Source: an uncultured Thermoleophilaceae bacterium (GTDB taxonomy: Bacteria > Actinomycetota > Thermoleophilia > Solirubrobacterales > Thermoleophilaceae). From it: a stretch of 64,000 nucleotides of DNA. Each line of letters begins with the position of its first letter. The stretch's first letter is position 1. Under the pieces are notes generated by a model. It saw only the letters and a list, made by a program, of their open reading frames with translations, was not told the origin of the DNA and did not search any database. The stretch lies in the NCBI GenBank assembly GCA_963755215.1, contig CAVWIW010000014.1, positions 14,347 through 78,346 on the forward strand, given 5' to 3'. The translations under genes and the position numbers were made by a program. Positions 2,198 through 22,367 of the stretch are shown in pieces.

Positions 2198-3769
2198 TCA
2201 GCGAACGACCACGAACCTGCGCTTCCCCAAGGCGCGTCCATACTTCCGCGCCGCCGGCCTGCCCTCGCCGGGCCACACGAACCAGGTGTAGCGGCCGGCC
2301 ACCAGACGGCGCCGCCGGCCGGCGAAGCGCCAGCTTCCGTGCAGCTGCAGCCGGTTGGTGCGCGGCCACCGGCTGAGCACCTTGCGGCCGGCGCGGAAGA
2401 GCTGGACGTTGTAGTACCGCGCTCGCTTGACCGGCTTCCAGATCAAGAGCGGCGGCTGCTTCAGCCTCCCGCCGTTCGCAGGAACGAGCAGAGGCGACGA
2501 CGTGGGCACAGCGCTGGTCTCGTCCCAGGACCGGTTGCCGGCCCTGTCGACCGCTCCCACTCGGTAGCGGTAGCGAACGCCGTTGCGCAGTTCCCGGCCG
2601 GTGAACCTGCGCCCCGCGCCGCGATACAGGACCACGTCGGCGCCGGGGTCGAGCCGCACGACCTCGAAGCTCAACCCGTCCGCCGGCAGCGACCAAGTCA
2701 GGCTGACCCGGCGGTGGCCTGGCAGCGCCTGGGCCCGCGGCGCGCCGGGGGGAGTGGCGTCGTAGGCGACGGTGTAGGACGCGGTGCCGACGTTCCCGGC
2801 GCGGTCGCGACAGCGGCCGGACACCGGCACCGCCTGGCCATCCGGCCCGCCGAAGCCGACCGTGTCGCAGCCCGCCACCCCGGACGTGCCGTCGCTGCCC
2901 TTGAACGACAGCGTCACCGGACGGTTGAACCAGCCGCCGTAGTCCGGCGGGCGGCTGGACGTGAAGCCCTGCCCCGTGGGCGGCACGCGGTCGATTCGGA
3001 TCGGAACGCTGTGCGCCGTGGTCATGAAGGGATCGCCGAGTTCCCGGATTTCGCAGTTCGCCCTGGCGGTCGCCGTGTCATTCGTGAACCGGGTCTCGAA
3101 GCAGTTCCCGCCGTTCGGCATGGCGATCAGCTGATCCCAGTCCCACCGCAGAGTGACACTCGAGCGGTACCAGCCGAGGCAGTTCGCCGGCGCCGGCGAG
3201 CACGCGTATGTCAGCGCCGGCGCCGCCCGTGCCTCGGCCGGCAACCCGGCGAGGACCGCCAGGACCACCAGCGCCGGCCCCGCGAGCCGGACCATCAGGC
3301 GGAGGCTGGCCGTGCCGGCTGCCACCAGGAGCAGCAGCCCCACGGCGGCGCGCAGGAGCGGCCCCCTGTCGGCCGTCTCACCCGTCACGGGCTTCAGCGG
3401 CAGCCGCGGCCAGGCCGTCGCGCGCTGCAGCGAAGCCGGCAGCGCGCCGGCAGCGCCGACCGGGGTCCGCTCCCGGCGTGCCTCCCGGCGTTTCGGCGCC
3501 GGCCGCGAGGCCGGGACGGGCACCGCGACTCTGCTCGGCGCGACCACGCGTACCGGACGGGCGTCGACCGGGGGCGGCGTGCGTGCAACCGGAGCGGATC
3601 GCGTCTCGGCGGCGGGCGGCTGCGCCGCGGGGGCCGGATCGGGCGCAGGCGCGGGCGCGCTCGTCGGCGAGGGTGCCGGGTCAGGCGCGGGAGGGGCGGC
3701 AACCGACAGGACCGGCGCTGCGACGAGGACGAGCGCGGTGAAGCAGAGCCAGAGCCCGAAGACGCGCAA
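2198..3769 (-). CDS. exported Pro/Ala-rich protein with Ig/fibronectin-III-like C-terminal region
   Basis: ORF 2198..3832. Preferred start is TTG at 3769 with AGGAGGG 7 nt upstream, giving a signal-like MRVFGLWLCFTALVLVAAP. A long Pro-rich spacer and a second hydrophobic segment follow, then a beta-rich Cys-containing part with an FN3-like pattern (RVSLTWSLP...YRYRVGAVDRAGN). Confidence 0.6.
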   Translation of the reverse strand: MRVFGLWLCFTALVLVAAPVLSVAAPPAPDPAPSPTSAPAPAPDPAPAAQPPAAETRSAPVARTPPPVDARPVRVVAPSRVAVPVPASRPAPKRREARRERTPVGAAGALPASLQRATAWPRLPLKPVTGETADRGPLLRAAVGLLLLVAAGTASLRLMVRLAGPALVVLAVLAGLPAEARAAPALTYACSPAPANCLGWYRSSVTLRWDWDQLIAMPNGGNCFETRFTNDTATARANCEIRELGDPFMTTAHSVPIRIDRVPPTGQGFTSSRPPDYGGWFNRPVTLSFKGSDGTSGVAGCDTVGFGGPDGQAVPVSGRCRDRAGNVGTASYTVAYDATPPGAPRAQALPGHRRVSLTWSLPADGLSFEVVRLDPGADVVLYRGAGRRFTGRELRNGVRYRYRVGAVDRAGNRSWDETSAVPTSSPLLVPANGGRLKQPPLLIWKPVKRARYYNVQLFRAGRKVLSRWPRTNRLQLHGSWRFAGRRRRLVAGRYTWFVWPGEGRPAARKYGRALGKRRFVVVR

Positions 3770-3844
3770 TAGGTCACCCTCCTGGTGTCGTAACTCGCGT
3801 CCGGGGCCACCGTAGACCCCGGCCGCCGGCAAGTCAACGGAGCG

Positions 3845-3872
3845 GCCGCCGGCCCGCGGACGGGCCGGCGGC
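3845..3872 (-). terminator. GC-rich hairpin between the repeat-protein gene and the next gene
   Basis: Perfect 12-bp stem GCCGCCGGCCCG / CGGGCCGGCGGC with a 4-nt loop, 37 nt downstream of the stop at 3909. No clear U-tract, so it could be a terminator or attenuator. Confidence 0.4.
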
Positions 3873-3908
3873 GCACCGTGTGAACTCAGCTCACCTCGTT
3901 CTTGTCCG

Positions 3909-4982
3909 TCACCTCCTCACGACGCCCTGAGCCTGGGCCAGCGCCTGCTCGAGCGCGTTGTAGTTGGCCGCGAACGAGGCGGCGCCCGACGCGTTCGACT
4001 GCGTCAGGTCGCCCCCGCCGCCGTAGCTCGCGAACCGCAGGGCCAGGCTCTTGTTCTCGGGGTAGACCTGCTTCGAGTCCGCCCACGAATCCGCGTCCTG
4101 GTAGTTCCGCGCAGCCTGGCCGGCGGCCTGGATCCCCAGCCCGCCGTGGCATCGACAGCTCGAGCCGTCCTGGCTCTGGTCGATGGCCTGCGCTGTGCGA
4201 TTGGCGTTCAGGGCCTTCGAAAGCGCCACGGACTCGTTGCTCTGAGTCACGTCGCCGTCGTCGCCCTTGCTCAGCACGCGCACGGAGAGCGCGTTGTTCT
4301 CCGGCTTGTACTGCTTCGACTCGGCCGAGGACTCGGCGCCCTGGGTCGAGTACGCGTGCTGTCCGGCTGCCTGGATCCCAACCGAGCCTTCGCAGCACTT
4401 GGGATCGGAGTCCTTGCGGTCGCCGTGCTCTTCGTGCGAGCAGCACCGCGACCCGTCCTGCGCCTGCCGGATCGCCTGCCCGAGCCGGTTCTCGTTGACC
4501 GCGTACGACTTGGCGGCCGACTCGTTGCTCTGCGAGACGTCTCCGTCGTCGCCAGGGCTGAGAACCCGCACCGAGATGTTGCGATTGGTGGGCTTGACCT
4601 GCGTGGAGTCCGCCCTGGAGTCCGCCGACTGATCGTTGACGGCCTTCTGACCGGCCTCCTGCACCGCGGCGCCACCGGAGCCGGCCTGCCGCTGCTCGAC
4701 CGCCTGCGCGGTGGAGTTGCCATTGGCGGCGCCGGACTCGGCGGTGGACGTATTGCGCTGGGTCACCGAGCCGTTGTCACCGGGGCTCAGGACCCGGACC
4801 GAGATGTTGGTGTTGCTCGGTCCGTACTGCGTCGAGGTCGCGCCCGACTGAGCGGACTGCTCGTTGGCGGCGGTCTGCTCCGAGACCTGGCCGCTCGCGG
4901 GGGCGTCGGCCATTGCCGGCCCGGCACCCACCCCAAGGGCTGCCGCGCTCACGACCAGCGCGACGAAACGGTTGCGTTTCAT
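3909..4982 (-). CDS. secreted Q/N/S/A-rich tandem-repeat protein (four imperfect repeats of 76-95 aa)
   Basis: 357-aa ORF with SD GAGGAGAA upstream of the ATG and a signal peptide (MKRNRFVALVVSAAALGVGAGPAMA|DA). Four repeats each carry N-x-S-V-R-V-L-S-P-G-D-x-G-x-V-T-Q-S-N-x-S followed by an A/S/N/Q ladder. Cys pairs (CC...CC, C-R-C) lie between repeats. Confidence 0.8.
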   Translation of the reverse strand: MKRNRFVALVVSAAALGVGAGPAMADAPASGQVSEQTAANEQSAQSGATSTQYGPSNTNISVRVLSPGDNGSVTQRNTSTAESGAANGNSTAQAVEQRQAGSGGAAVQEAGQKAVNDQSADSRADSTQVKPTNRNISVRVLSPGDDGDVSQSNESAAKSYAVNENRLGQAIRQAQDGSRCCSHEEHGDRKDSDPKCCEGSVGIQAAGQHAYSTQGAESSAESKQYKPENNALSVRVLSKGDDGDVTQSNESVALSKALNANRTAQAIDQSQDGSSCRCHGGLGIQAAGQAARNYQDADSWADSKQVYPENKSLALRFASYGGGGDLTQSNASGAASFAANYNALEQALAQAQGVVRR

Positions 4983-5055
4983 GTCGTTCTCCTCTGCGTC
5001 TTGACTTGGGCCGGGAGGTCGTTCCCCCCGGCGGGTCGCGAAGAGCCGACAGGCG

Positions 5056-6162
5056 CTAGCCAGGCCGTTCGAGCCTGCGTGAGCCGATGAAAGAGGCGAA
5101 CCTCGGGATGCGCGCCCAGACCGGGCCCAGGGCGCGTGGCGCGATCAGGCTCAGCGCGCCGAGCAGCACCACCAGGAGCACCGACGACGAGCCGCCCGGC
5201 GGGCCGGGAGCCGACGCGGCGGGCCGCGCCACGGCAGGCATCTCGAACGGGCCCGTGGACCCTTTACCCGCCTCGGGGTTCCGTCCCCGACGGGTATCCA
5301 GGCTGGGAGACGAGCGCTGCGAAGCAGTGGCCGCGAGGGGAACGGCGTACCCGGTCACCGGGCCCGCAGCTGCGGGGATACGGGCCGGTTTGAATGGCGC
5401 GCCGCCGCCCTGGACCTGGCGCGGCTCTGAGCGCCCCGCGGCGGGTGACGGCCCGCTCTGCTCGGGGGCGGTGCCCTGCGGACGGAGCCCATCCGGGGGC
5501 TGCACGGCGCCGCGTCGGGGCAGCTCGGAGGGGGTGCGCGCGGCGCCGTCCTTGCTCCGGTCACCGCGCGCCCCGGCCAGGCCTCCGCAATCCCAGTCCC
5601 AGTCCCACCTCCAGCCCGCGGCCGTGGCGGGTGGGGTCGCGGCGGGGTCGCACGTCCAGTCCCAGTCCCAGTCCCAGCAATCGGTGCCCACGAGCGGGCC
5701 GCTCGGCGCGCGGGCGCCGCCGCCGCTCCCCGTGAGCTGGACCACGTCCCCGTTGTCGCCGGGACTGAAGATTCGGATGTCCACGTTCACGTTCGCCGGT
5801 GGTCCAGCCGCCGTTGGTGGCTGCACGCTGCGTGCGTCCGGCTCGAGGGAGGGCGGGTCAGCGGTCGGCGCCACGGTCGGGGCCTCCCGGGCGGGCTCGG
5901 CCGCGGGTGCGGGCTCGGCCGGCGCGGTCGGGGGCGCGGTCGCTCCCCCACCGGCCGAGGCCTCCTCGGGACGATGCTGCTGCGACGGATCCAGCGCGGG
6001 GTCCGGCGCACCGTCCGGGGTCGCCGCCGGCGCGACGGCGCCGCCGGACCCGCCCGCGCTCGAGACCTCAGCGCTCGAAGGCTCAGGACATCCCATCGCG
6101 ATGGCCAGCGCGGCGAGAAAGCCGGCGACCATCCTGAGAGCGTTGCTTGGCGTGCTTGCCAT
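5056..6162 (-). CDS. exported (possible lipoprotein) Pro-rich protein with SPGD motif, WDWDWDW blocks and C-terminal hydrophobic anchor
   Basis: 368-aa ORF. N-terminus MASTPSNALRMVAGFLAALAIAMGC looks like a signal with a lipobox-like AMGC. It has one copy of NVNVDIRIFSPGDNGDVVQ, the blocks CWDWDWDWTC and WRWDWDWDC, and C-terminal SSVLLVVLLGALSLIAPR followed by basic residues. Confidence 0.65.
   Translation of the reverse strand: MASTPSNALRMVAGFLAALAIAMGCPEPSSAEVSSAGGSGGAVAPAATPDGAPDPALDPSQQHRPEEASAGGGATAPPTAPAEPAPAAEPAREAPTVAPTADPPSLEPDARSVQPPTAAGPPANVNVDIRIFSPGDNGDVVQLTGSGGGARAPSGPLVGTDCWDWDWDWTCDPAATPPATAAGWRWDWDWDCGGLAGARGDRSKDGAARTPSELPRRGAVQPPDGLRPQGTAPEQSGPSPAAGRSEPRQVQGGGAPFKPARIPAAAGPVTGYAVPLAATASQRSSPSLDTRRGRNPEAGKGSTGPFEMPAVARPAASAPGPPGGSSSVLLVVLLGALSLIAPRALGPVWARIPRFASFIGSRRLERPG
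5592..5677. repeat. two blocks of hexanucleotide (CCCAGT)n repeats encoding the W-D repeats
   Basis: Block 5592..5607 and block 5655..5677 are tandem CCCAGT units on the + strand (ACTGGG = W-D on the coding strand). They are in frame. Confidence 0.7.
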
Positions 6163-7250
6163 GGCAGTTCACCCGACAAGTACCGGCGAAACGCAGCCCC
6201 GGGCGAAATTCCCCGCGCCAGAGGCCGATATCGGAGATACTGCGGGGCGATATCGCGCCCTCCCGTCAAGGAAGGAGGGGGGTCTTCACGAAACAGCAGC
6301 TCAGCAGTGAGCGCGCGACGGCCACGGGCCGCCTCCTCACGGCCTACCGCGAGGAAGGCGACATCCGCGCGCGTGACCGGCTCATCCAGCTCTACATGCC
6401 GCTCGTCGAGACGCTTGCCCGCCGGCACGGCCGTCGCGGGGCGGAGCTCGAGGACCTCGTGCAGGTGGGCTCGATCGGCCTGCTCAAAGCGATCGACCGC
6501 TTCGATCCCCGCAAGGGCGAGGAGCTCACGGCCTACGCAGTCCCGACGATCTCCGGTGAGATCAAGCGCCACCTGCGCGACCGGGGGCGAGGCGACCCGG
6601 CCGCGCTGGAGCAGGCAGGGGCCTTGAGCCATCGCGGGGAGGCCGACGCCGAGCCCGAGTCCGAGGTGGACGACCGGATCCTGCTGGCCGGCGCGTTCGA
6701 GGCGCTCGACGACACGGAGCGAAAGGTCATCTACCTGCGCTACATCCGCGAGCGGAGCCGGCGCGACACCGCGAAGGAGCTCGGGATGACGGACGATCGG
6801 CTGCGCAGGAGCACGCAGGCCGCGCTCGCCAAGCTGCGCGGAGAGCTCGAGCGGGGCGCCCTCCCGGCTCCGACCCGGGAAGCGCCCGCGCCGCTGGCAC
6901 CCAGCGAGCGCCCGCCGGAGCCTGGTCCCGCCCCGGCACCCGTCGCGGAGCCCGCCAGGGACCGCAACGGCGGTTCGCACAGCGGCCGGCTGCTGGTCCG
7001 GATGCCGCAGTCCCTGCACGACGAGCTCGCCAGCGCGGCGGAGGGCGACCGCGTGAGCCTGAACCAGTTCATCACCAATGCACTGGCGTCAGCCGTCGGA
7101 TGGAACCAGCCGCGGAGCCCGGAGCCGCCGCCGAGCGAGCCGCAGCCACCCCGGCTGCTGCGGGCGGCGATCGTGACGAACATCGTCGTGCTCGCGCTGG
7201 CCGGAGTCGCGGCGCTGCTCCTGCTGGTGGCCTGGCAGCAGGGCTGGTAA
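6147..7250 (+). CDS. sigma-70 family factor (regions 2 and 4 only) fused to a ribbon-helix-helix (HicB/Arc-like) domain and a C-terminal transmembrane helix
   Basis: Region 2 motifs LEDLVQVGSIGLLKAIDRFDP and PTISGEIKRHLRD. Region 4 ALDDTERKVIYLRYIRERSRRDTAKELGMTDDRLRRSTQAALAKLR. RHH-like SGRLLVRMPQSLHDELASAAEGDRVSLNQFITNALASAVGW (about 6981-7103). TM AAIVTNIVVLALAGVAALLLLVAW (about 7164-7235). The start is uncertain: the only in-frame canonical starts are TTG 6147/6156, and the strong SD GGAAGGAGGGGGG at 6270-6282 has no canonical start after it. Confidence 0.75.
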   Translation: MACLPWQFTRQVPAKRSPGRNSPRQRPISEILRGDIAPSRQGRRGVFTKQQLSSERATATGRLLTAYREEGDIRARDRLIQLYMPLVETLARRHGRRGAELEDLVQVGSIGLLKAIDRFDPRKGEELTAYAVPTISGEIKRHLRDRGRGDPAALEQAGALSHRGEADAEPESEVDDRILLAGAFEALDDTERKVIYLRYIRERSRRDTAKELGMTDDRLRRSTQAALAKLRGELERGALPAPTREAPAPLAPSERPPEPGPAPAPVAEPARDRNGGSHSGRLLVRMPQSLHDELASAAEGDRVSLNQFITNALASAVGWNQPRSPEPPPSEPQPPRLLRAAIVTNIVVLALAGVAALLLLVAWQQGW

Positions 7251-8258
7251 GCCGCCGGCTACCCGATCGCGCGCCAGCGCTCGGGGTCCTCGCCGTCCAG
7301 CTTCTCGCGCACCGCCGCCGAGCTCGAGGTGACGCAGGTAGCACAGCGTCTCCGACAGGCCCCAGTTGAGGAGCATCGGCGTGAGCTCCTCCACGCCCAG
7401 CAGGCGGGGAACGATCTCGTAAGGGGTGCGGGGCTCGTCGGAGATGGCAGCGCGCACCCGCTCGACCCGCTCATGCACCGCCGAGCGGTTGGCCTCGATC
7501 AGGCCCGGCGCGTCGCGCACCGGGCGGCCGTGCCCCGCCAGCACCAGGTCCACGTCGAGGCCGGCGACGGTGTCGAGGCTGCGCAGGAACTCGCCCGCCG
7601 GGTCGGGCGTCCAGCCGAAGTCGTAGTAGAGGGAGACGCGCCCAATGATGTGGTCGCCCGACAGAAGCAGACGCCGCTCCGGCTGATGCAGGACCACGTG
7701 CGACGGAGCGTGCCCCGGCGTTTCGTAGACGCGCCAGGTGCCCAGGTCGGTTTCCACCTCCACCCCGTCCAACAGCTCGCGGTCGGGCGGCACCACGTCG
7801 GCGATGCCGATCCCCTGCGCCTGGCGCGCCTCTCGGTAGCGCTCCATGGTGGGGCCGGGTACGCCGCTGTGCAGCGCCACCTCGATGCGGCGCTCGAGCT
7901 GGCGGTCGGGGTCGGCCGCGGCCGTGGTCATGTGCCGGTGGTCGGGGTGCATCCACAGCTCGCAGCCGGCCCGCTCCACGATTGGCGCAGCCAGCCCGTA
8001 GTGGTCGCTGTGCGCGTGCGTGCAAACCACCAGGCGCACGTGCTCGAGCCCCATGCCGGCCTGGTCGAGCGCCAGCTCGAGCTGTGCGAGGGAGCCGGGC
8101 TCGTGCATCCCGGTGTCCACGAGCACCACGCCGCTCCCCGCCGCGATCGCGAACGCGTTCACGTGCGGCACGCCCGGCCACGGCAGCGGCAGGCGCAGCC
8201 GCCACAGGCCGGGCAGCACGCGGTCGGCCCGGGCCAGCTCGCGCTTGCGCCCGCTCAT
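7089..8258 (-). CDS. MBL-fold metallo-hydrolase
   Basis: ATG at 8258 overlaps the upstream stop (ATGA). Motifs CTHAHSDHYG and ETPGHAPSHV. The open frame runs to 7089, overlapping the sigma gene by 162 nt. A more family-like C-terminus (AAVREKLDGEDPERWRAIG, stop at 7259) lies in another frame, so a frame break near 7305 is likely. Confidence 0.75.
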   Translation of the reverse strand: MSGRKRELARADRVLPGLWRLRLPLPWPGVPHVNAFAIAAGSGVVLVDTGMHEPGSLAQLELALDQAGMGLEHVRLVVCTHAHSDHYGLAAPIVERAGCELWMHPDHRHMTTAAADPDRQLERRIEVALHSGVPGPTMERYREARQAQGIGIADVVPPDRELLDGVEVETDLGTWRVYETPGHAPSHVVLHQPERRLLLSGDHIIGRVSLYYDFGWTPDPAGEFLRSLDTVAGLDVDLVLAGHGRPVRDAPGLIEANRSAVHERVERVRAAISDEPRTPYEIVPRLLGVEELTPMLLNWGLSETLCYLRHLELGGGAREAGRRGPRALARDRVAGGLPALLPGHQQEQRRDSGQREHDDVRHDRRPQQPGWLRLARRRLRAPRLVPSDG

Positions 8259-9864
8259 GGGTCGATCAGCACACCGGGGTTGAGCATGCCGGCGGGGTCC
8301 AGCTCGCGCTTGGCCGCCCGCAGGGCCGATGCGAACACGTCCGGGCGCTGGCGGTCGTACCAGGGGCGGTGATCGCGGCCCACCGCGTGGTGGTGGGTGA
8401 TCGTGCCGCCGGCTGCCACGATCGCCTCCGAGGCGGCCTCCTTGACCTCCTGCCACTGCTCCAGCTCGAGCCCGCGGCGTGCCGGAGCGAGGACGGTGAA
8501 GTAGGGCGCGGCGCCGTCGGGGTAGGCGTGGGTGAGGCGGCAGGTCACGCGCCCTTCGCCGAGCGCCTCACGCGCGGCGCCGCCGACGGACGCCACGAAC
8601 TCATCGAACGCGTCCCAGGTGATCGCCGTCTCGAACGTCTCGGCCAGGACACCGGCGGCCACCATCGTGTCGCGCAGGTAGGGCGCGCGCAGGAACGCGT
8701 CTCGCCACGAGCCCTCCGCGACGCCGCGCTCGCCCTCCCCCGCCTCGGGCCCGCGCAGGCGAGGCTCTCCGCTGGGGCTGCCCCCGTGATCGCCGCAGAG
8801 CTCCAGCGCGCGCGCCAGCCAGGCGTCGAGGGGATGGTCCGCCGACTCGAAGCCGAGGACCAACACTGCGCGCCCGGCGGCCGACGCGCCGGTGAGCTCG
8901 GCCTCGGCCGGGTCCAGCAGGCGGCAGTTGGAGGGCGAGAGCCCCGACTGCGCCAGGTCGCGCACGGCGCCCGCTCCAGCCTCGAAGCGTCTCGAACTCC
9001 AGGTCGGCGGCAGCCCTGAAGGGCGGCCGTGGCCGCACCCTCACCCAGGCCTCTGTGATCACCCCGAGGATCCCCTCCGAGCCGATCAGCATCCGGTCCG
9101 GACTGGGCCCCGCGCCCGACGCGGGCAGCCGGCGGCTCTGCCACTCGCCGGCCGGCGTGATCGCCCGGACCGACTGCACCAGGTCGTCGATGTGCGTCGG
9201 CCCGGTGGCGAAGTGACCGCCCGCGCGCGTGGCGATCCACCCGCCTAGCGTCGAGTACTCGAACGACTGGGGGAAGTGGCGCAGCGTCAGGCCGTGGGAT
9301 CTCAGCTGCTCCTCCAGCTCGGGGCCGGTTGCGCCCGCCTGGATCAGCGCCGTCTGGGAGGTGGCGTCGACCTCCAGGACCCGGTCCAGGGCGCGTAGGT
9401 CGAGCGTGACCACAGGCCGGTCGCCCAGGTCGCGCGCCTCGACCCCGCCGCACACGCTCGTGCCGCCGCCGAACGGAACCACGGCCGCGCCGGCTCCCTC
9501 GCACCAGTCCAGCACCCGCTCCACGTCGGCCTCGGCCTGCGGCCGCGCCACCACGTCGGGCGGCTCGGGGAAGTCGCCGCGGAAGCCGCGCACGACGTCG
9601 CGGTAGGCCTTGCCCAGCGCGTGCGACGCGCGCTCGTGGGCATCCGACAAGCAGATGGCTGCCAGTGCCGCCGGAGGCGTCTACCCGCGGCGCCCGCAGC
9701 GTCACGTCGTCCAAGGGCACCGGGCGCTCCACCTCCGCCGCGCCGAACCCCAGGTGCTCGCGGAGGCCGCGCGCGGCCGCCTCGACCTCCTCGTGGGGCG
9801 GCTGCTGGTCCTCGTATCCCCAGCCCCAGTGCTTGAGCCTGCGCGTGCCCTCGATCACACCCAT
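8255..9864 (-). pseudogene. FAD-linked oxidase (alkyl-DHAP-synthase/GlcD-like), split over three frames
   Basis: The N-terminus (LKHWGWGYED), the FAD-binding part (VVPFGGGTSVCGG, EGILGVITEAW) and the C-terminus (GGTITHHHAVGRDH...MLNPGVLIDP) lie in three different frames. The junctions are near 9678 and 8988. Confidence 0.8.
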
Positions 9865-9945
9865 GTGCAGGAACTCTCTCAGAGGCCGTGCGCCCCGGCC
9901 GACCGCCCTGCGGGTTCGCGCCGCACGGGTAGAGTGCCCGTGGGG

Positions 9946-10593
9946 ATGGCCACACAGGGCACGACGGTCCAGATCACCATGCCGGCCATGGGCGAGTCGG
10001 TCACCGAGGGCACCGTGCTCGAGTGGCTCAAGCAGGTGGGCGACACCGTCGCCGTCGACGAGCCGCTGGTGGAGGTGTCCACCGACAAGGTCGACGCCGA
10101 GGTGCCGTCCCCCGCCGCGGGCGTGCTCAGCGAGATCCTGGTGGGCCCCGACGAGACCGTGCAGGTGGGCCAGGCGCTGGGTGAGATCGAGTCGGCCGGC
10201 GGGCCCGCCGCCGAGGACGCATCCGCCGCCCCCGCCGGCGGCCCTTCCAACGGAGACGAGCCGGAGGAGACGACGGGCGAGGCCGTCGACGTGACCTTCC
10301 CGGAGATGGGCGACTCGGTGGCCGAGGGCACGATCCTCGAGTGGCGGGTCAAGCCCGGCGACACGGTGGCCGTGGACGACCCGCTGGTGGAGATCTCGAC
10401 CGACAAGGTCGACGCCGAGGTGCCCTCGCCCGTGGCCGGCACGGTGATCGAGCTGCTGGCCGAGGCGGACGCGACCGTCCCTGTCGGCAGCGTGCTATGC
10501 CGGATCGAGGCGGGCCCAGGAGCGCCCGGACAGGCAGCACCCGCGCCCAAGGCCGAGGCGGCGCGCCCCGGCACCGATGCGCCCGCCCCGTGA
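9946..10593 (+). CDS. two-lipoyl-domain protein (E2 lipoyl carrier part)
   Basis: ATG at 9946. Two copies of the lipoyl attachment pattern (EVSTDKVDAEVPSPAAG and EISTDKVDAEVPSPVAG) are followed by an Ala/Pro linker. The stop TGA at 10591 overlaps the GTG of the next ORF. Confidence 0.8.
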   Translation: MATQGTTVQITMPAMGESVTEGTVLEWLKQVGDTVAVDEPLVEVSTDKVDAEVPSPAAGVLSEILVGPDETVQVGQALGEIESAGGPAAEDASAAPAGGPSNGDEPEETTGEAVDVTFPEMGDSVAEGTILEWRVKPGDTVAVDDPLVEISTDKVDAEVPSPVAGTVIELLAEADATVPVGSVLCRIEAGPGAPGQAAPAPKAEAARPGTDAPAP

Positions 10594-13500
10594 ACGGCGA
10601 CGCCGACGCCACGCCGGTGGCCGCGCGAATGGCGGCCGAGCACGGCATCGACCTCGGCGCCGTGGGCGGGAGCGGCCCGCGCGGGCGCGTGACCAAGCAG
10701 GACGTGGAGGCGGCCATCTCGGGCAACGGTGGCGCGGCGCCCGCGGCTGCGGCGGAGCCGGCCGGCGCTTCGACCGAGCCCATCCGCGGCCCCGCGGCCA
10801 CGCTCGCCCGCTTCATGGACGAGAGCCGCTCGATCCCCACGGCCACCAGCTTCCGCACGCTGGCCGTGGACGCCCTGGCGGGCCGCCGCGGCCAGCTCAA
10901 GGCCGCGGGCAAGAAGCTCTCGTTCACCCACCTGATCGCCTGGGCGATCGTGCGCGCAACCGACGACATGCCGGTCATGGCCCACTCCTTCACGGAGGTC
11001 GAGGGCAAGCCGCACCGGGTGACCCCGGAGTCGGTGAGCCTGGGGCTGGCGGTCGACGCCGAGCGCAAGGACGGCACGCGATCGCTGGTGGTGCCGGTCA
11101 TCCGCCACGCCTCCACCCTGGACTTCGCCGCCTTCGTGTCCGCCTACGACGAGGCGGTGGCCGGCGCCCGCGACAACAAGCTTGCGCCGGATGCCTACAG
11201 CGGGGCGCAGATCACGCTGACCAACCCGGGGGGCATCGGCACGGTGGCATCCGTTCCGAGGCTGATGCCCGGCCAGGGCACGATCGTGGCCACCGGGGCC
11301 ATCGGCTACCCGGCCGGCCTGGCCCAGGCCGAGCCCGAGCGCCTGCGCGAGCTGGGCGTGGCCAAGGTCATGACCATGACCTCGACCTACGACCACCGCG
11401 TGATCCAGGGCGCGGAGTCCGGCGCTTTCCTCAAGCGCATCGACGAGCTGCTGCAGGGCCAGGACGGCTTCTACGAGACGGTGTTCGCCGCGCTGGGCGT
11501 GGAGAGCGACCGAGTCGCGGGCGAGGACGGCGGCGGCCGGGTCACGGCAGCCGACCCGGTGCCGGCCACGACGGCCCCCGCCGCGATGGCGGCTCCGGAC
11601 GAGGCCCTGCTGCAGGCCGTGCAGGCCGCCACCTCGGTGGTCAAGGCGCACCGGATGCATGGTCACCTGGCGGCGCGGCTGGACCCGCTGGGATCCGAGC
11701 CGCGCGGCGACCCGGCGCTCGACCCCGCCACGGTGAGCCTCTCGCCGGAGCTCATGGCCCGCATTCCGGCATCGGTGCTGCGCGTGGCGGTGCCCGGCGC
11801 CACCTTCGCCGAGGCGCTGCCCAATCTCGAGGCCACCTACTGCGGCACCATCGCCTACGAGATCGAGCACATCTCCGGCCACAACCGGCGCGTGTGGCTG
11901 CGCAAGGCCATCGAGTCCGGCGAGCACCGCCAGCCCATGTCGGCCGAGGAGAAGCGCCGCCTGCTCGGCCGCCTGTCTCAGGTCGAGGCGCTGGAGGGCT
12001 ACCTGCACAAGGCGTTCCTGGGCAAGAAGCAGTTCTCCATCGAGGGCCTGGACGCGCTGGTCCCGATGCTGGACGAGACGATCGAGCTCAGCGCCCGGGC
12101 GGGTGCGCGCGAGGTTGTCCTGGGCATGGCGCACAGGGGCCGGCTGAACGTGCTGGCCCACACGGTGAGCCGGCCGTACGAGTCGATCCTGGTGGAGTTC
12201 GAGGGCGAGCAGACGCTGTCGGCCGACACCGCCGCGCCCGAGGGCGGGACCGGCGACGTGAAGTACCACTACGGCGCCTCGGGGACCTACCGGACCCTCG
12301 AGGGCAAGGGCGTGACCGTGACGCTCTCGCCCAACCCCAGCCACCTGGAGTACGTGAACCCGGTGATCGAAGGCCGCGCCCGGGCCGACCAGACCAGTCG
12401 GAAGGGACGCGAGGTCAGCCACGACCCCAGCGTCGTGGTGCCGGTGCTCATCCATGGCGACGCCGCGTTCCCGGGCCAGGGCGTTGTGGCCGAGACGCTC
12501 AACCTCCAGGCGCTCCCCGGCTACAGCACCGGCGGCACGGTGCACATCATCGCCAACAACCAGCTGGGCTTCACCACCGACCCTCCGGACGCGCGCTCCA
12601 CCCGCTACGCGTCGGACCTGGCAAAGGGCTACGACGTGCCGATCATCCACGTGAACGCCGACGACGTGGAGGCCTGCGTCCACGCGGTGCGGCTGGCGGT
12701 GAGCTTCCGCAACGAGTTCCACCGCGATGCCCTGATCGACCTGATCGGCTACCGCCGCTTCGGCCACAACGAGACCGACGAGCCCGCCTACACCCAGCCC
12801 GCGATGTATGGGCTGATCAAGGACCACCCGCCCGTGCGCTCCCTCTACGCGGAGCGGCTGGCCGAGGAAAGCGTGGTGGCCTCCGAAGACGCGGACACGC
12901 TCGCCAAGGAGGCGCTGGACGCCGTGTCCAAGGCCCACCAGGAGCTCAAGGAGTCGATCGCTGGGCCGCCGCCCACCGGCCAGCACGAGATCGACGTGAC
13001 GATGAGCCGCGAGCCCAAGACCACCCTGCCCGAGGACCTGCTGCGCTCGCTCAACGAGCAGATCGTGAAGGTGCCAGACGGCTTCTCGGTGCACCGCAAG
13101 CTCAAGCCGTTCCTGGAGAAGCGCCGCGAGGCCGCCGGGGCGGACGGGCGCGTGGACTGGGCCCACGCCGAGTCGCTGGCATTCGCCTCCCTGCTGGCGC
13201 TGGGCGTGCCGATCAGGCTCACCGGCCAGGACACCGAGCGCGGCACGTTCAGCCAGCGCCACCTGGTGCTGCACGACGCCGAGAGCGGTGAGCGCTGGTG
13301 CCCGCTGCAGAACCTCCACAGCGCGGTGTCGCCGCTGGAGCTGCACAACAGCCCCCTGTCCGAGCAGGGGTGCCTCGGCTTCGAGTACGGCTACAGCGTG
13401 CAGGATCCCGACGCGCTGGTGCTCTGGGAGGCCCAGTTCGGCGACTTCGTGAACTCGGCCCAGGTGATCCTCGACCAGTTCATGGTCTCCGGCCTGGCCA

Positions 13501-14231
13501 AGTGGGGGCAGACCTCGCGCCTGACGCTGCTCCTGCCGCACGGCTACGAGGGCTCGGGCCCGGAGCACTCCTCCGGTCGCGTCGAGCGCTTCCTGCAGGC
13601 CTGCGCCGAGGGCAACATCCGGGTGGCCAACTGCACGACGCCGGCCCAGTACTTCCACCTGCTGCGCCGCCAGGCCATGGTCTCCAAGCCGCGCCCCCTG
13701 GTGCTCATGACGCCCAAGAGCCTGCTGCGGCTGCCGGCCGCCACCTCGACGATGGACGAGCTGGCCAACGGGGGGTTCAGCCGCGTGATCGACGACGACG
13801 CGCTGCCGGGCGAGCGCGAGGCTGTGACCAAGCTCGTGCTGTGCTCGGGCAAGGTCTTCTACGACATCGCCGGGCACGAGGAGCGGCCCGCGGCCGATCA
13901 CATCGCGGTCGCGCGCGTGGAGATGCTCTACCCGTTCCCGGGGGAGCAGCTCACGGAGCTGATGTCCTCCTACCCGAACCTGGAGCGCCTCGTGTGGGTG
14001 CAGGAGGAGCCGCGCAACATGGGCGCCCGCGCGTTCATGCGCAGGCGAATGGCGGCGATCCTGCCCGAGCACCTGCACTACTACTACGTCGGTCGCCAGC
14101 TCCGCGCGGCCCAGAGCGAGGGCTACACGGCGGCGCACCGCAAGGAGCAGGCCCGCATCGTGCGCGTGGCCCTGGACCTCGAGGACGACGTGCTCGAGCG
14201 CGACGCATCGGCCGAGCGGCCCTTGCTGTAG
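10590..14231 (+). CDS. kgd: multifunctional 2-oxoglutarate dehydrogenase: E3-binding domain + E2 acyltransferase core + E1 (Kgd/OdhA type)
   Basis: The GTG at 10590 is needed to include the peripheral-subunit-binding domain (TPVAARMAAEHGIDLGAVGGSGPRGRVTKQDV). E2 catalytic motif STYDHRVIQGAESGAFL. Then a long E1o region (GMAHRGRLNVLAH, HGDAAFPGQGVV, LLLPHGYEGSGPEHSS). Confidence 0.9.
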   Translation: MNGDADATPVAARMAAEHGIDLGAVGGSGPRGRVTKQDVEAAISGNGGAAPAAAAEPAGASTEPIRGPAATLARFMDESRSIPTATSFRTLAVDALAGRRGQLKAAGKKLSFTHLIAWAIVRATDDMPVMAHSFTEVEGKPHRVTPESVSLGLAVDAERKDGTRSLVVPVIRHASTLDFAAFVSAYDEAVAGARDNKLAPDAYSGAQITLTNPGGIGTVASVPRLMPGQGTIVATGAIGYPAGLAQAEPERLRELGVAKVMTMTSTYDHRVIQGAESGAFLKRIDELLQGQDGFYETVFAALGVESDRVAGEDGGGRVTAADPVPATTAPAAMAAPDEALLQAVQAATSVVKAHRMHGHLAARLDPLGSEPRGDPALDPATVSLSPELMARIPASVLRVAVPGATFAEALPNLEATYCGTIAYEIEHISGHNRRVWLRKAIESGEHRQPMSAEEKRRLLGRLSQVEALEGYLHKAFLGKKQFSIEGLDALVPMLDETIELSARAGAREVVLGMAHRGRLNVLAHTVSRPYESILVEFEGEQTLSADTAAPEGGTGDVKYHYGASGTYRTLEGKGVTVTLSPNPSHLEYVNPVIEGRARADQTSRKGREVSHDPSVVVPVLIHGDAAFPGQGVVAETLNLQALPGYSTGGTVHIIANNQLGFTTDPPDARSTRYASDLAKGYDVPIIHVNADDVEACVHAVRLAVSFRNEFHRDALIDLIGYRRFGHNETDEPAYTQPAMYGLIKDHPPVRSLYAERLAEESVVASEDADTLAKEALDAVSKAHQELKESIAGPPPTGQHEIDVTMSREPKTTLPEDLLRSLNEQIVKVPDGFSVHRKLKPFLEKRREAAGADGRVDWAHAESLAFASLLALGVPIRLTGQDTERGTFSQRHLVLHDAESGERWCPLQNLHSAVSPLELHNSPLSEQGCLGFEYGYSVQDPDALVLWEAQFGDFVNSAQVILDQFMVSGLAKWGQTSRLTLLLPHGYEGSGPEHSSGRVERFLQACAEGNIRVANCTTPAQYFHLLRRQAMVSKPRPLVLMTPKSLLRLPAATSTMDELANGGFSRVIDDDALPGEREAVTKLVLCSGKVFYDIAGHEERPAADHIAVARVEMLYPFPGEQLTELMSSYPNLERLVWVQEEPRNMGARAFMRRRMAAILPEHLHYYYVGRQLRAAQSEGYTAAHRKEQARIVRVALDLEDDVLERDASAERPLL

Positions 14232-22067: not shown

Positions 22068-22142
22068 AGCAAGCGGCCGGACTCGAACCGGCGACCTCCG
22101 GCGTGACAGGCCGGCAACCGTTCCGTGCTAAACGAGCTTGCT
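22068..22142 (-). tRNA. degenerate tRNA-Asp(GTC)-like element
   Basis: Shares an identical 39-nt block (22077..22115 = 22303..22341) with the neighbouring tRNA-Asp, covering the anticodon arm (CTGTCAC loop), variable region and T-arm. The acceptor stem can pair (AGCAAGC/GCTTGCT), but the D-arm region and junctions are non-canonical (extra bases before the anticodon stem and after the T stem). Confidence 0.4.

Positions 22143-22293: not shown

Positions 22294-22367
<74 letters not shown>

Follow-up and report, generated by a model that had tools for sequence, protein, structure and literature searches.

The 64,000-nucleotide stretch of contig CAVWIW010000014.1 analysed here (the window), from an uncultured Thermoleophilaceae bacterium, carries near its start a sigma factor gene on the plus strand and, diverging from it on the minus strand, the genes of three exported proteins which we call B, A and C in order of increasing distance from the sigma gene (Table 1). 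Sequence comparison indicates that these four genes form a genuine and undescribed module that is kept across the class Thermoleophilia. The explanation which we consider on balance probable is that of a four-part, Thermoleophilia-wide cell-envelope module, in which the sigma factor would drive transcription of B and A, A would be held on the cell by B, C would serve as an accessory, and a ribbon-helix-helix (RHH) domain attached to the sigma factor would provide autoregulation. The sequence data show directly which genes are present and how far they are kept, the motifs of promoter and operator, the motif common to A and B, the signals of topology, and purifying selection. Within this scheme we infer the pairing of sigma factor with promoter and of RHH domain with operator, the docking of A on B, and the formation of a polymer.

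Relatives of the module were surveyed with one genome per species; 159 were found and the best 80 were used for locus comparison, with denominators of 85 loci for gene content, 79 for promoters and hairpins, 65 for the pair of GATATC palindromes described below, and 47 for B orthologues. These best 80 relatives are all metagenome-assembled genomes (MAGs) of Thermoleophilaceae, Solirubrobacteraceae, Gaiellaceae or unclassified relatives. The sigma gene lies upstream of A and B on the opposite strand in 82 of the 85 loci, an RHH domain joined to a transmembrane (TM) helix (RHH-TM) is present in 81, and C follows A in 80, the exceptions in each case being truncated contigs. The adjacency of the sigma gene, on which the original prediction from this DNA was built, is thereby kept in essentially every related locus with enough flanking sequence. 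Gene-by-gene Pfam lists were inspected around five annotated contigs, which differ in their flanks and share one layout, in which a sigma gene, whether or not it includes HicB, diverges from genes resembling B and A and from either one or two resembling C. The arrangement is kept in at least three families despite different flanks, and purifying selection acts on all four genes, whose ratios of nonsynonymous to synonymous divergence (dN/dS) are 0.21-0.50. At the level of DNA, the window shares 97.3% identity with L006 (contig CAWFBA010000012.1, an uncultured Thermoleophilaceae MAG) and 84-88% with a second MAG, L007. We found no paper describing the module or its sigma-RHH-TM architecture, and nothing relevant in the literature on sigma-HicB fusions, membrane-anchored RHH sigma factors, amyloid in Thermoleophilia, or membrane-tethered SigF. 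One MAG (MFD02360.bin.1.63) contains the whole module twice, on two contigs (L015 and L018).

The regulator joins sigma regions 2 and 4 to an RHH domain and a membrane helix, as had been predicted, and both additions are borne out, the former by a Pfam HicB match and the latter by hydropathy. Its best NCBIfam family is SigBFG (TIGR02980), at 134.8 bits under a cut-off of 234.35, and only the general sigma-70 superfamily model TIGR02937 exceeds its own cut-off; among PDB sequences the best match is sigma-F (1l0o_C, 2e-24), followed by 8x6g_H (7e-20), deposited merely as 'RNA polymerase sigma factor'. Grouping with the extracytoplasmic function (ECF, group 4) sigma factors does not fit, given that the specific best matches are all of group 3 and that relatives keep region 3. 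This region (~55 residues, lost in frame between regions 2 and 4, at window positions 6590-6693) is missing from the window, L006 and L007 when compared with L001, L002 and others; a similar gap is seen in L036, and most relatives retain the region. Despite this loss, the window gene is under purifying selection relative to L007 (dN/dS 0.21).

Sigma factor and RHH-TM are fused in Thermoleophilaceae and Solirubrobacteraceae, and Gaiellaceae-type loci encode the RHH-TM as a gene of its own immediately 3' of the sigma gene (79 aa in L005), with the entire two-domain HicB retained in several lineages. By Rosetta-stone reasoning, such alternation of fused and split forms is evidence of joint action. 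Sequence conservation across loci extends to both the RHH strand (HSGRLLVRMP) and the TM helix (VTNIVV...AWQQGW); a search for homologues of the RHH-TM segment returned no more than 44 short, unnamed proteins and was uninformative on range. Neither a HicA gene nor an RsbW/SpoIIAB-type anti-sigma gene was found in the five annotated loci, and no STAS antagonist lies within the module, a single SpoIIAA-like gene being seen among those loci, near L003 only. The end of the sigma open reading frame (ORF) at 7250 stands as predicted, but its start at TTG 6147 is doubtful, since that codon falls within the first codons of B and upstream of conserved regulatory DNA. Conservation at the protein level starts near 6309, after a ribosome-binding-site-like GGAAGGAGG at 6270-6278, and a conserved ACG is found at 6288; no ATG, GTG or TTG occurs in frame between 6147 and 6396. 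Because L001, with a stop codon just 5' of the conserved N-terminal stretch, shows the same missing-start problem, a non-canonical sigma start is possible. In one clade, a second sigma-70-family ORF occurs near the module (phmmer E 1e-11 to 3e-14 against the sigma core), lying on the plus strand ~3-5 kb downstream of A in L022, L023, L030 and L040, and, in L046 and L056, on the plus strand at the opposite end, past both the sigma gene and the RHH-TM gene.

A generic promoter and terminator scan of the region returned nothing, and the promoters described here emerged solely via cross-locus comparison. In 57 of 79 loci, GGGTA[TC] occurs at a fixed site just upstream of B, on the B strand, against a background of 0.15 per kb per strand. 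The consensus is GGNTCA-N14-GGGTATTTC or GGCCGC-N14-GGGTACTTG, with GGCTGA-N14-GGGTAG as the variant in Solirubrobacteraceae, and the start codon of B follows the element by 8-17 nt across loci; in the window the ATG lies 17 nt downstream of the -10-like element, so that the mRNA would be nearly leaderless. SigB-type promoters, known from B. subtilis and from nine S. coelicolor SigB homologues, have a -10 element of GGG(T/A)A(T/A/C), a spacer of 12-15 nt, and three G residues that are nearly invariant (PMC8346170). The B-A promoter agrees with that consensus, the window having one mismatch, at the first G, which has been lost from GGGTAC in the window, L006 and L007 alike. In L036, where region 3 is also missing, the B-promoter element was not recognised. 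This conserved SigB/F-type promoter fits the regulatory link from the sigma factor to B and A that had been proposed, and at the sequence level supports the view that the sigma factor drives B-A within a self-contained envelope module.

The GATATC pair is unique in the window, where none is expected in shuffled sequence and GATATC itself occurs only four times in 64 kb. Near the module it is found in 34 of 65 loci, at 0.48 per kb compared with 0.009 per kb elsewhere (~54-fold enriched), and in Thermoleophilaceae (~20 loci) its position is between sigma gene and B promoter. The conserved pair suggests that the RHH domain, predicted as part of a tether and indeed present, is not merely that but a real DNA-binding domain; most simply, it would descend from a HicB antitoxin and bind DNA as an autoregulator. 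GATATC-N16-GATATC also occurs within the 5' part of the B ORF in ~14 loci (L022, L023, L030, L032, L040, L043, L046-L049, L056, L064, L070 and L076), where it reads V-I-S...P-D-I-T. Reading of the codons in 11 of these loci showed the rare ATA, GAT and CCT, in two different frames, which suggests that the in-ORF pair is constrained as DNA rather than as protein. In Solirubrobacteraceae we considered a GCATG repeat as a further operator and rejected it, because one of its copies, the second, is the -35 element itself.

The hairpin between B and A (fold energy -39 kcal/mol, z -3.4) is present in nearly all loci, and an alignment of 21 sequences keeps a 7-bp stem with compensatory change in three pairs. 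It may set the B:A ratio by acting on mRNA processing, stability or attenuation. The spacer that contains it measures ~70-80 nt, a length kept across families. Past A, perfect stems of at least 10 bp, differing in sequence, occur in ~50 of 79 loci, with a mean minimum free energy of -55.8 kcal/mol against -46.3 kcal/mol in random windows, and TTGACN-N16-18-TANNNT is found within 200 nt of A in 61 of 79 loci (background 0.0065 per 200 nt). The hairpin after A, together with a TTGAC-type promoter of its own, indicates that C is transcribed separately, by means of a housekeeping-type sigma factor. The original prediction of a sigma gene diverging from a three-gene operon therefore holds for the ORFs, whose listed coordinates were confirmed, for their divergence and for their adjacency, but not for C as a member of the operon. 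An Rfam scan of the module region found no RNA family.

Export signals had been predicted for all three minus-strand proteins, and hydropathy confirms a hydrophobic N-terminal segment in each. Protein A has at least 482 relatives in a set of 5.8 billion proteins, every one of them unnamed or 'hypothetical', and an exhaustive profile search recovered 1203 representatives of 50%-identity clusters at E<=1e-3. Homologues range from 170 to 1161 aa in length, so that repeat number evidently varies. A has no Pfam family over cut-off (the nearest, GFP, scores 21.4 bits against 22, with no stretch passing) and no NCBIfam match, and its profile matched PDB sequences only through the signal peptide (E 1.4). 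The Inhibitor_I78 (PF11720) label on the longer homologues P0002, P0013, P0096 and P0115 is likely misleading, a motif-level artefact: it sums partial matches to the VRVLSPGxxGxVTQ hairpin, of which no single stretch passes for a domain of 65 residues, and the window protein itself has no PF11720 match. B and C likewise return nothing above cut-off from Pfam or NCBIfam; for C, we note a sub-threshold NCBIfam match to the MXAN_2561 family (8e-11), and weak FN3 and titin matches of no use among PDB sequences. That the structural proteins stand outside characterised families, as first supposed, is thus upheld by Pfam, NCBIfam, PDB and sequence searches, none of which gave a confident match.

The motif common to A and B is N-x-[NSA]-[IVL]-[SDA]-[VIL]-R-[VIF]-[LFA]-S-P-G-D-x-G-x-[VL]-x-Q, and six-frame translation of the window finds it in these two proteins alone, as claimed at the outset. 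The pattern originally written for it fits B, and the four copies in A do align, but it is two residues too long for A, in which SPGD is present in only two copies, the third having SKGD and the fourth SYGGGGD. Mature A consists to 60% of A, S, G, Q, N and T, and to only 12% of I, L, V, M and F, with an isoelectric point (pI) of 5.0; its inserts are rich in His, Asp and Cys, and its SPGDDGD turns in Asp. Conservation along the protein alternates (autocorrelation +0.62 at lag 2, -0.26 at lag 1), and this period-2 conservation of Q/N/S/A extends nearly throughout A in stretches of 20-29 residues, shifting phase only at PxN and SPGD. So few I, L, V, M and F residues, together with strict period-2 Q/N/S/A, leave A no ordinary globular core, and point to sheet-on-sheet packing between A units or molecules. 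Polymerisation of A into a fibre or amyloid-like sheet is plausible from its sequence, and would fit the composition, the period-2 conservation, a repeat number that differs among homologues, and the presence of one major and one minor subunit.

AlphaFold2 (AF2) modelling of full-length A from 44 sequences gave an all-beta structure with three long strands per repeat, at low confidence (pLDDT 54.7), and a two-repeat fragment modelled from 49 repeat pairs was poorer still (pLDDT 38.2). Pure disorder, the outcome that would have told against a surface structure, is not what is predicted, though confidence is low; at such scores, and with no homology to curlin, the amyloid-like character originally proposed stays conjectural. 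Foldseek comparison of the model with the PDB returned nothing significant (best E 9e-3, TM-score <0.1), and its weak list of beta-helices, CsgA, FapC and ice-binding proteins was not used as evidence at such scores. Synonymous divergence (dS) of A from L007 is unusually low, at 0.18 compared with ~0.5 in neighbouring genes (L001 was also compared), which could reflect strong selection on codon use owing to high expression, constraint at the RNA level, or gene conversion.

The single motif in B aligns by BLASTP with the four A repeats at E values of 1e-6, 2e-6, 3e-4 and 0.077, and B ORFs were matched by the A query in many loci. The TM helix, the Trp motifs and the [ED]RPG terminus are kept in the 47 B orthologues, the last of these invariantly. 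Predicted to lie on a cytoplasmic tail, ERPG resembles no known sorting signal, and no LPXTG-like motif occurs near any C-terminus of the module proteins, B ending in its TM helix, the 25-aa basic tail and ERPG. These sequence features support the view that B keeps A on the cell, via the hairpin unit that A and B share. C occurs as two genes (C1 and C2) in many loci.

In the explanation that we favour, a group-3 SigB/F-like sigma factor would transcribe B-A from a GGNTCA-N14-GGGTA(T/C/G) promoter. B would be anchored in the membrane, span the wall by its Pro/Ala-rich spacers, and display one strand-SPGD-strand unit; A, exported by Sec, acidic, and built of long beta-strands in which a single face, of Q/N/S/A, is conserved, would dock on B and probably polymerise from it, yielding a cell-anchored, beta-rich fibre or coat that is perhaps cross-linked via its CC and CxC motifs. 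C, a basic Ig/FN3-like membrane protein with its own housekeeping promoter, may be an accessory for assembly or attachment. An RHH dimer would bind the GATATC pair beside the sigma-gene promoter and so exert autoregulation, and the membrane anchor would limit or localise sigma activity. Several observations weigh against this explanation. All known carriers are MAGs, and SigB/F paralogues, of which a host possibly has several, could read the B promoter. The window's own -10 element, cGGTAC, is without the first of the three near-invariant SigB-type G residues, and its -35 element is poor. No promoter of GGGTAT or TTGAC type was found upstream of the sigma gene, for which reason we dropped the notion that the sigma factor transcribes its own gene from a promoter of the B-A type. 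Further, no GATATC pair was found in about half of the loci, and in the ~14 where it lies within the B ORF it is away from the sigma promoter, so that one operator model does not fit all families. The low AF2 confidence for A, together with the lack of a significant Foldseek match, counts in the same direction.

The main rival to a DNA-binding autoregulator is that the RHH-TM acts chiefly as an anti-sigma factor, holding the sigma factor inactive at the membrane, in cis where fused and in trans where separate, with release by proteolysis or by a signal from the membrane segments of B or C, and with GATATC unrelated, for example as the site of another regulator. The location of the RHH-TM directly 3' of the sigma gene, which is the usual place of an anti-sigma gene, the alternation of fused and split forms, and the lack of an RsbW/SpoIIAB-type gene nearby in the five loci are consistent with such a role, and conservation of the TM helix, down to a polar Asn and the AWQQGW at its end, suggests specific intramembrane contacts. 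We nevertheless hold it to be rather unlikely, given that the RHH is of the canonical HicB type with its basic beta-strand signature SGRLLVRMP kept in all loci, and that no known anti-sigma domain was detected in Pfam or NCBIfam. RHH dimers, as in repressors of the Arc/MetJ/CopG type, bind palindrome pairs about two helical turns apart, and the GATATC pair has a spacing that suits them. An extracytoplasmic part for signal reception is also absent, the sigma factor extending only ~5 residues beyond the membrane with no sensor domain; the same observation leaves the extracellular sensing envisaged in the original prediction without support. A chance insertion of a degenerate hicAB toxin-antitoxin cassette beside a sigma gene, with no tie to the exported proteins, would account for the HicB domain and for the full two-domain HicB kept at some loci. 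This we find hardly credible, and already contradicted by the conservation data: no inspected locus of the five has HicA, the RHH always bears a TM helix, the arrangement persists in at least three families with differing flanks, and the fused gene is under purifying selection at the dN/dS of 0.21 given above.

As regards A, it is possible, albeit not probable, that the protein does not polymerise but forms a surface layer, adhesin or stress-protective coat, held by B under a general-stress-type sigma factor and serving, for example, in desiccation protection or the binding of metal or Ca. SigB/F-family sigma factors typically drive stress, stationary-phase or dormancy regulons, which accords with a coat, as do the acidic pI, the Asp-rich SPGDDGD turns, the inserts rich in His, Asp and Cys, and the failure of AF2 to converge on a solenoid. 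Against a coat stand the scarcity of I, L, V, M and F combined with strict period-2 Q/N/S/A over 20-29 residues, and a repeat number that varies widely, as in modular fibres. A bolder extension of the fibre, which we consider unlikely, is that A and B represent, in monoderm soil bacteria, a class of functional amyloid or beta-fibre that is new and unrelated in sequence to those known, and that they are made under a new kind of tethered transcription machine in which sigma, RHH and TM form one polypeptide. The RHH would then hold the locus at the membrane and the sigma domain would bring in RNA polymerase, aggregation-prone subunits would be transcribed, translated and exported where they are assembled, and the conserved cytoplasmic ERPG tail of B would feed back on the regulator.

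The module resembles the curli and chaplin/BldN systems in logic only, by analogy and not in sequence. In the curli system of Enterobacteria, csgBAC diverges from csgDEFG, the regulator is of the LuxR type, and the curlin repeat is 19-23 aa long. Shared with curli are a regulator gene divergent from the structural genes, the order of a minor cell-bound subunit, a major secreted subunit sharing its repeat, and a small Ig-like protein, and imperfect Q/N/S/A/G-rich repeats of strand, tight Gly/Asp turn and strand; that the minor subunit has the repeat of the major one, as the motif of B aligns to the four A repeats, is a functional analogy only. Curlin_rpt (PF07012) has no Pfam match in the module proteins at E<=1, hhalign gives the A-family profile a probability of 0.14% against E. 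coli CsgA, and none of the five loci has csgE/F/G-like genes around it. Unlike in curli, the repeat of A is 76-96 aa long with alternation over 20-29 residues, B is TM-anchored, the regulator is a sigma factor, and the host is presumably monoderm. The Streptomyces chaplin/rodlin layer is governed by the ECF sigma factor sigma-BldN with its membrane anti-sigma factor RsbN, and chaplins are short hydrophobic domains. There too, an actinobacterial alternative sigma factor is tied to a membrane protein and directs the production of self-assembling, secreted surface proteins of which some are cell-anchored; the module differs in that its sigma factor is SigB/F-like whereas BldN is ECF, in that A is polar and Q/N-rich whereas chaplins are short and hydrophobic, and in that its genes are adjacent as one unit. 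Pfam domains of chaplin, rodlin, TasA and FapC are absent from the module proteins at E<=1.

Among regulators, SigB, SigF and SigG are similar in regions 2 and 4 and in the target promoter, with its GGGTA(T/C) -10 element and 14-nt spacer, but the module has no RsbW/RsbV-type genes in the five loci, its sigma factor adds a C-terminal RHH and TM helix, and the window sigma factor and its close relatives are without region 3, the SigBFG score staying below cut-off as noted. Likeness to HicB antitoxins consists in the PF05534 RHH over cut-off, the HicB N-terminal domain kept by some relatives, and a palindromic candidate operator beside the domain's own gene in the window and the ~20 Thermoleophilaceae loci; the differences are the missing HicA partner, the tail-anchor TM helix, fusion to or a shared operon with a sigma factor, and a fixed association with envelope genes. 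ToxR/CadC-type regulators, and sigma/anti-sigma pairs released by regulated intramembrane proteolysis, are analogous in placing DNA-binding or sigma activity on a single membrane helix, but the helix of the module's regulator sits at the very C-terminus of the protein and bears no domain on the periplasmic or extracellular side, and the module includes no protease gene.

Thermoleophilia are abundant in soils, but few have been cultured. The module offers a candidate envelope structure from a family without described relatives, comprising ~1,200 clusters at 50% identity, and it supplies a defined promoter together with a candidate operator set. An architecture of SigB/F core, RHH and tail anchor, with or without region 3, would widen the known modes of sigma factor control, and a fibre made of A, if confirmed, would mean that the curli-like pairing of minor anchor with major repeat subunit had been invented independently.

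Table 1. Features of the sigma-B-A-C module, in window coordinates.
Feature	Position	Strand	Details
Protein C	2198..3769 (or 3832)	-	basic, pI 11.4
C two-TM-helix hairpin	3290-3364, 3224-3289	-	followed by Ig (immunoglobulin)/FN3-like ectodomains
C signal/anchor segment	3683-3769	-	followed by Pro-rich spacer
C promoter	3809..3837	-	sigma-70-type, TTGACT-N17-TACGGT
Terminator-like hairpin downstream of A	3845..3872	-	12-bp GC stem, z -3.8
Protein A	3909..4982	-	predicted secreted major repeat protein, 357 aa; signal peptide and four repeats of 76-96 aa
A motif copies	4758-4814, 4530-4586, 4242-4298, 3999-4055	-	
A CxC	4149-4157	-	
A CC...CC insert	4392-4445	-	
B-A intergenic hairpin	5010..5032	-	GCCGGG-loop-CCCGGC, then strong ribosome-binding site and ATG of A
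Protein B	5056..6162	-	predicted membrane-anchored minor component, 368 aa
B basic tail	ERPG at 5059-5070	-	~25 aa, ending ERPG
B C-terminal TM helix	5131-5199	-	hydropathy
B W-x-W-x-W-x-W elements	5656-5676, 5593-5613	-	two, each adjoining Cys
B A-type motif	5737-5793	-	one copy
B signal peptide	6070-6162	-	followed by Pro/Ala-rich spacer
B-A promoter	6180..6205	-	-10-like cGGTAC at 6185..6180, weak -35 ~14 nt upstream
GATATC palindrome pair	6227..6254		22 bp apart; candidate RHH operator
Possible sigma-gene -10	6236-6241		GATACT, flanked by the GATATC palindromes
Sigma-RHH-TM gene	6282..7250 (start uncertain; open from TTG 6147)	+	sigma factor fused to HicB-type RHH and C-terminal membrane helix
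Sigma region 2	6381-6590	+	Pfam Sigma70_r2, 2.7e-20
Sigma region 4	6693-6839	+	Pfam Sigma70_r4, 7.5e-8
RHH domain	6978-7103	+	HicB PF05534, 3.2e-9, 37 bits against cut-off 21, residues 278-313
Sigma TM helix	7155-7247	+	hydropathy; extreme C-terminus

The window has a GC content of ~72%, and the module is flanked in it by MTHFR (1284-2180), MOSC (45-590) and metallo-beta-lactamase-fold (7089-8456) genes, which are syntenic with L001, as is a large 2-oxoglutarate dehydrogenase-type ORF with lipoyl, E2 and E1 parts at 9610-14231 on the plus strand; none of these genes is related to the module. Further along, two tRNA genes (Rfam RF00005) lie on the minus strand at 22068-22141 and 22294-22367, the second barely exceeding the gathering score.

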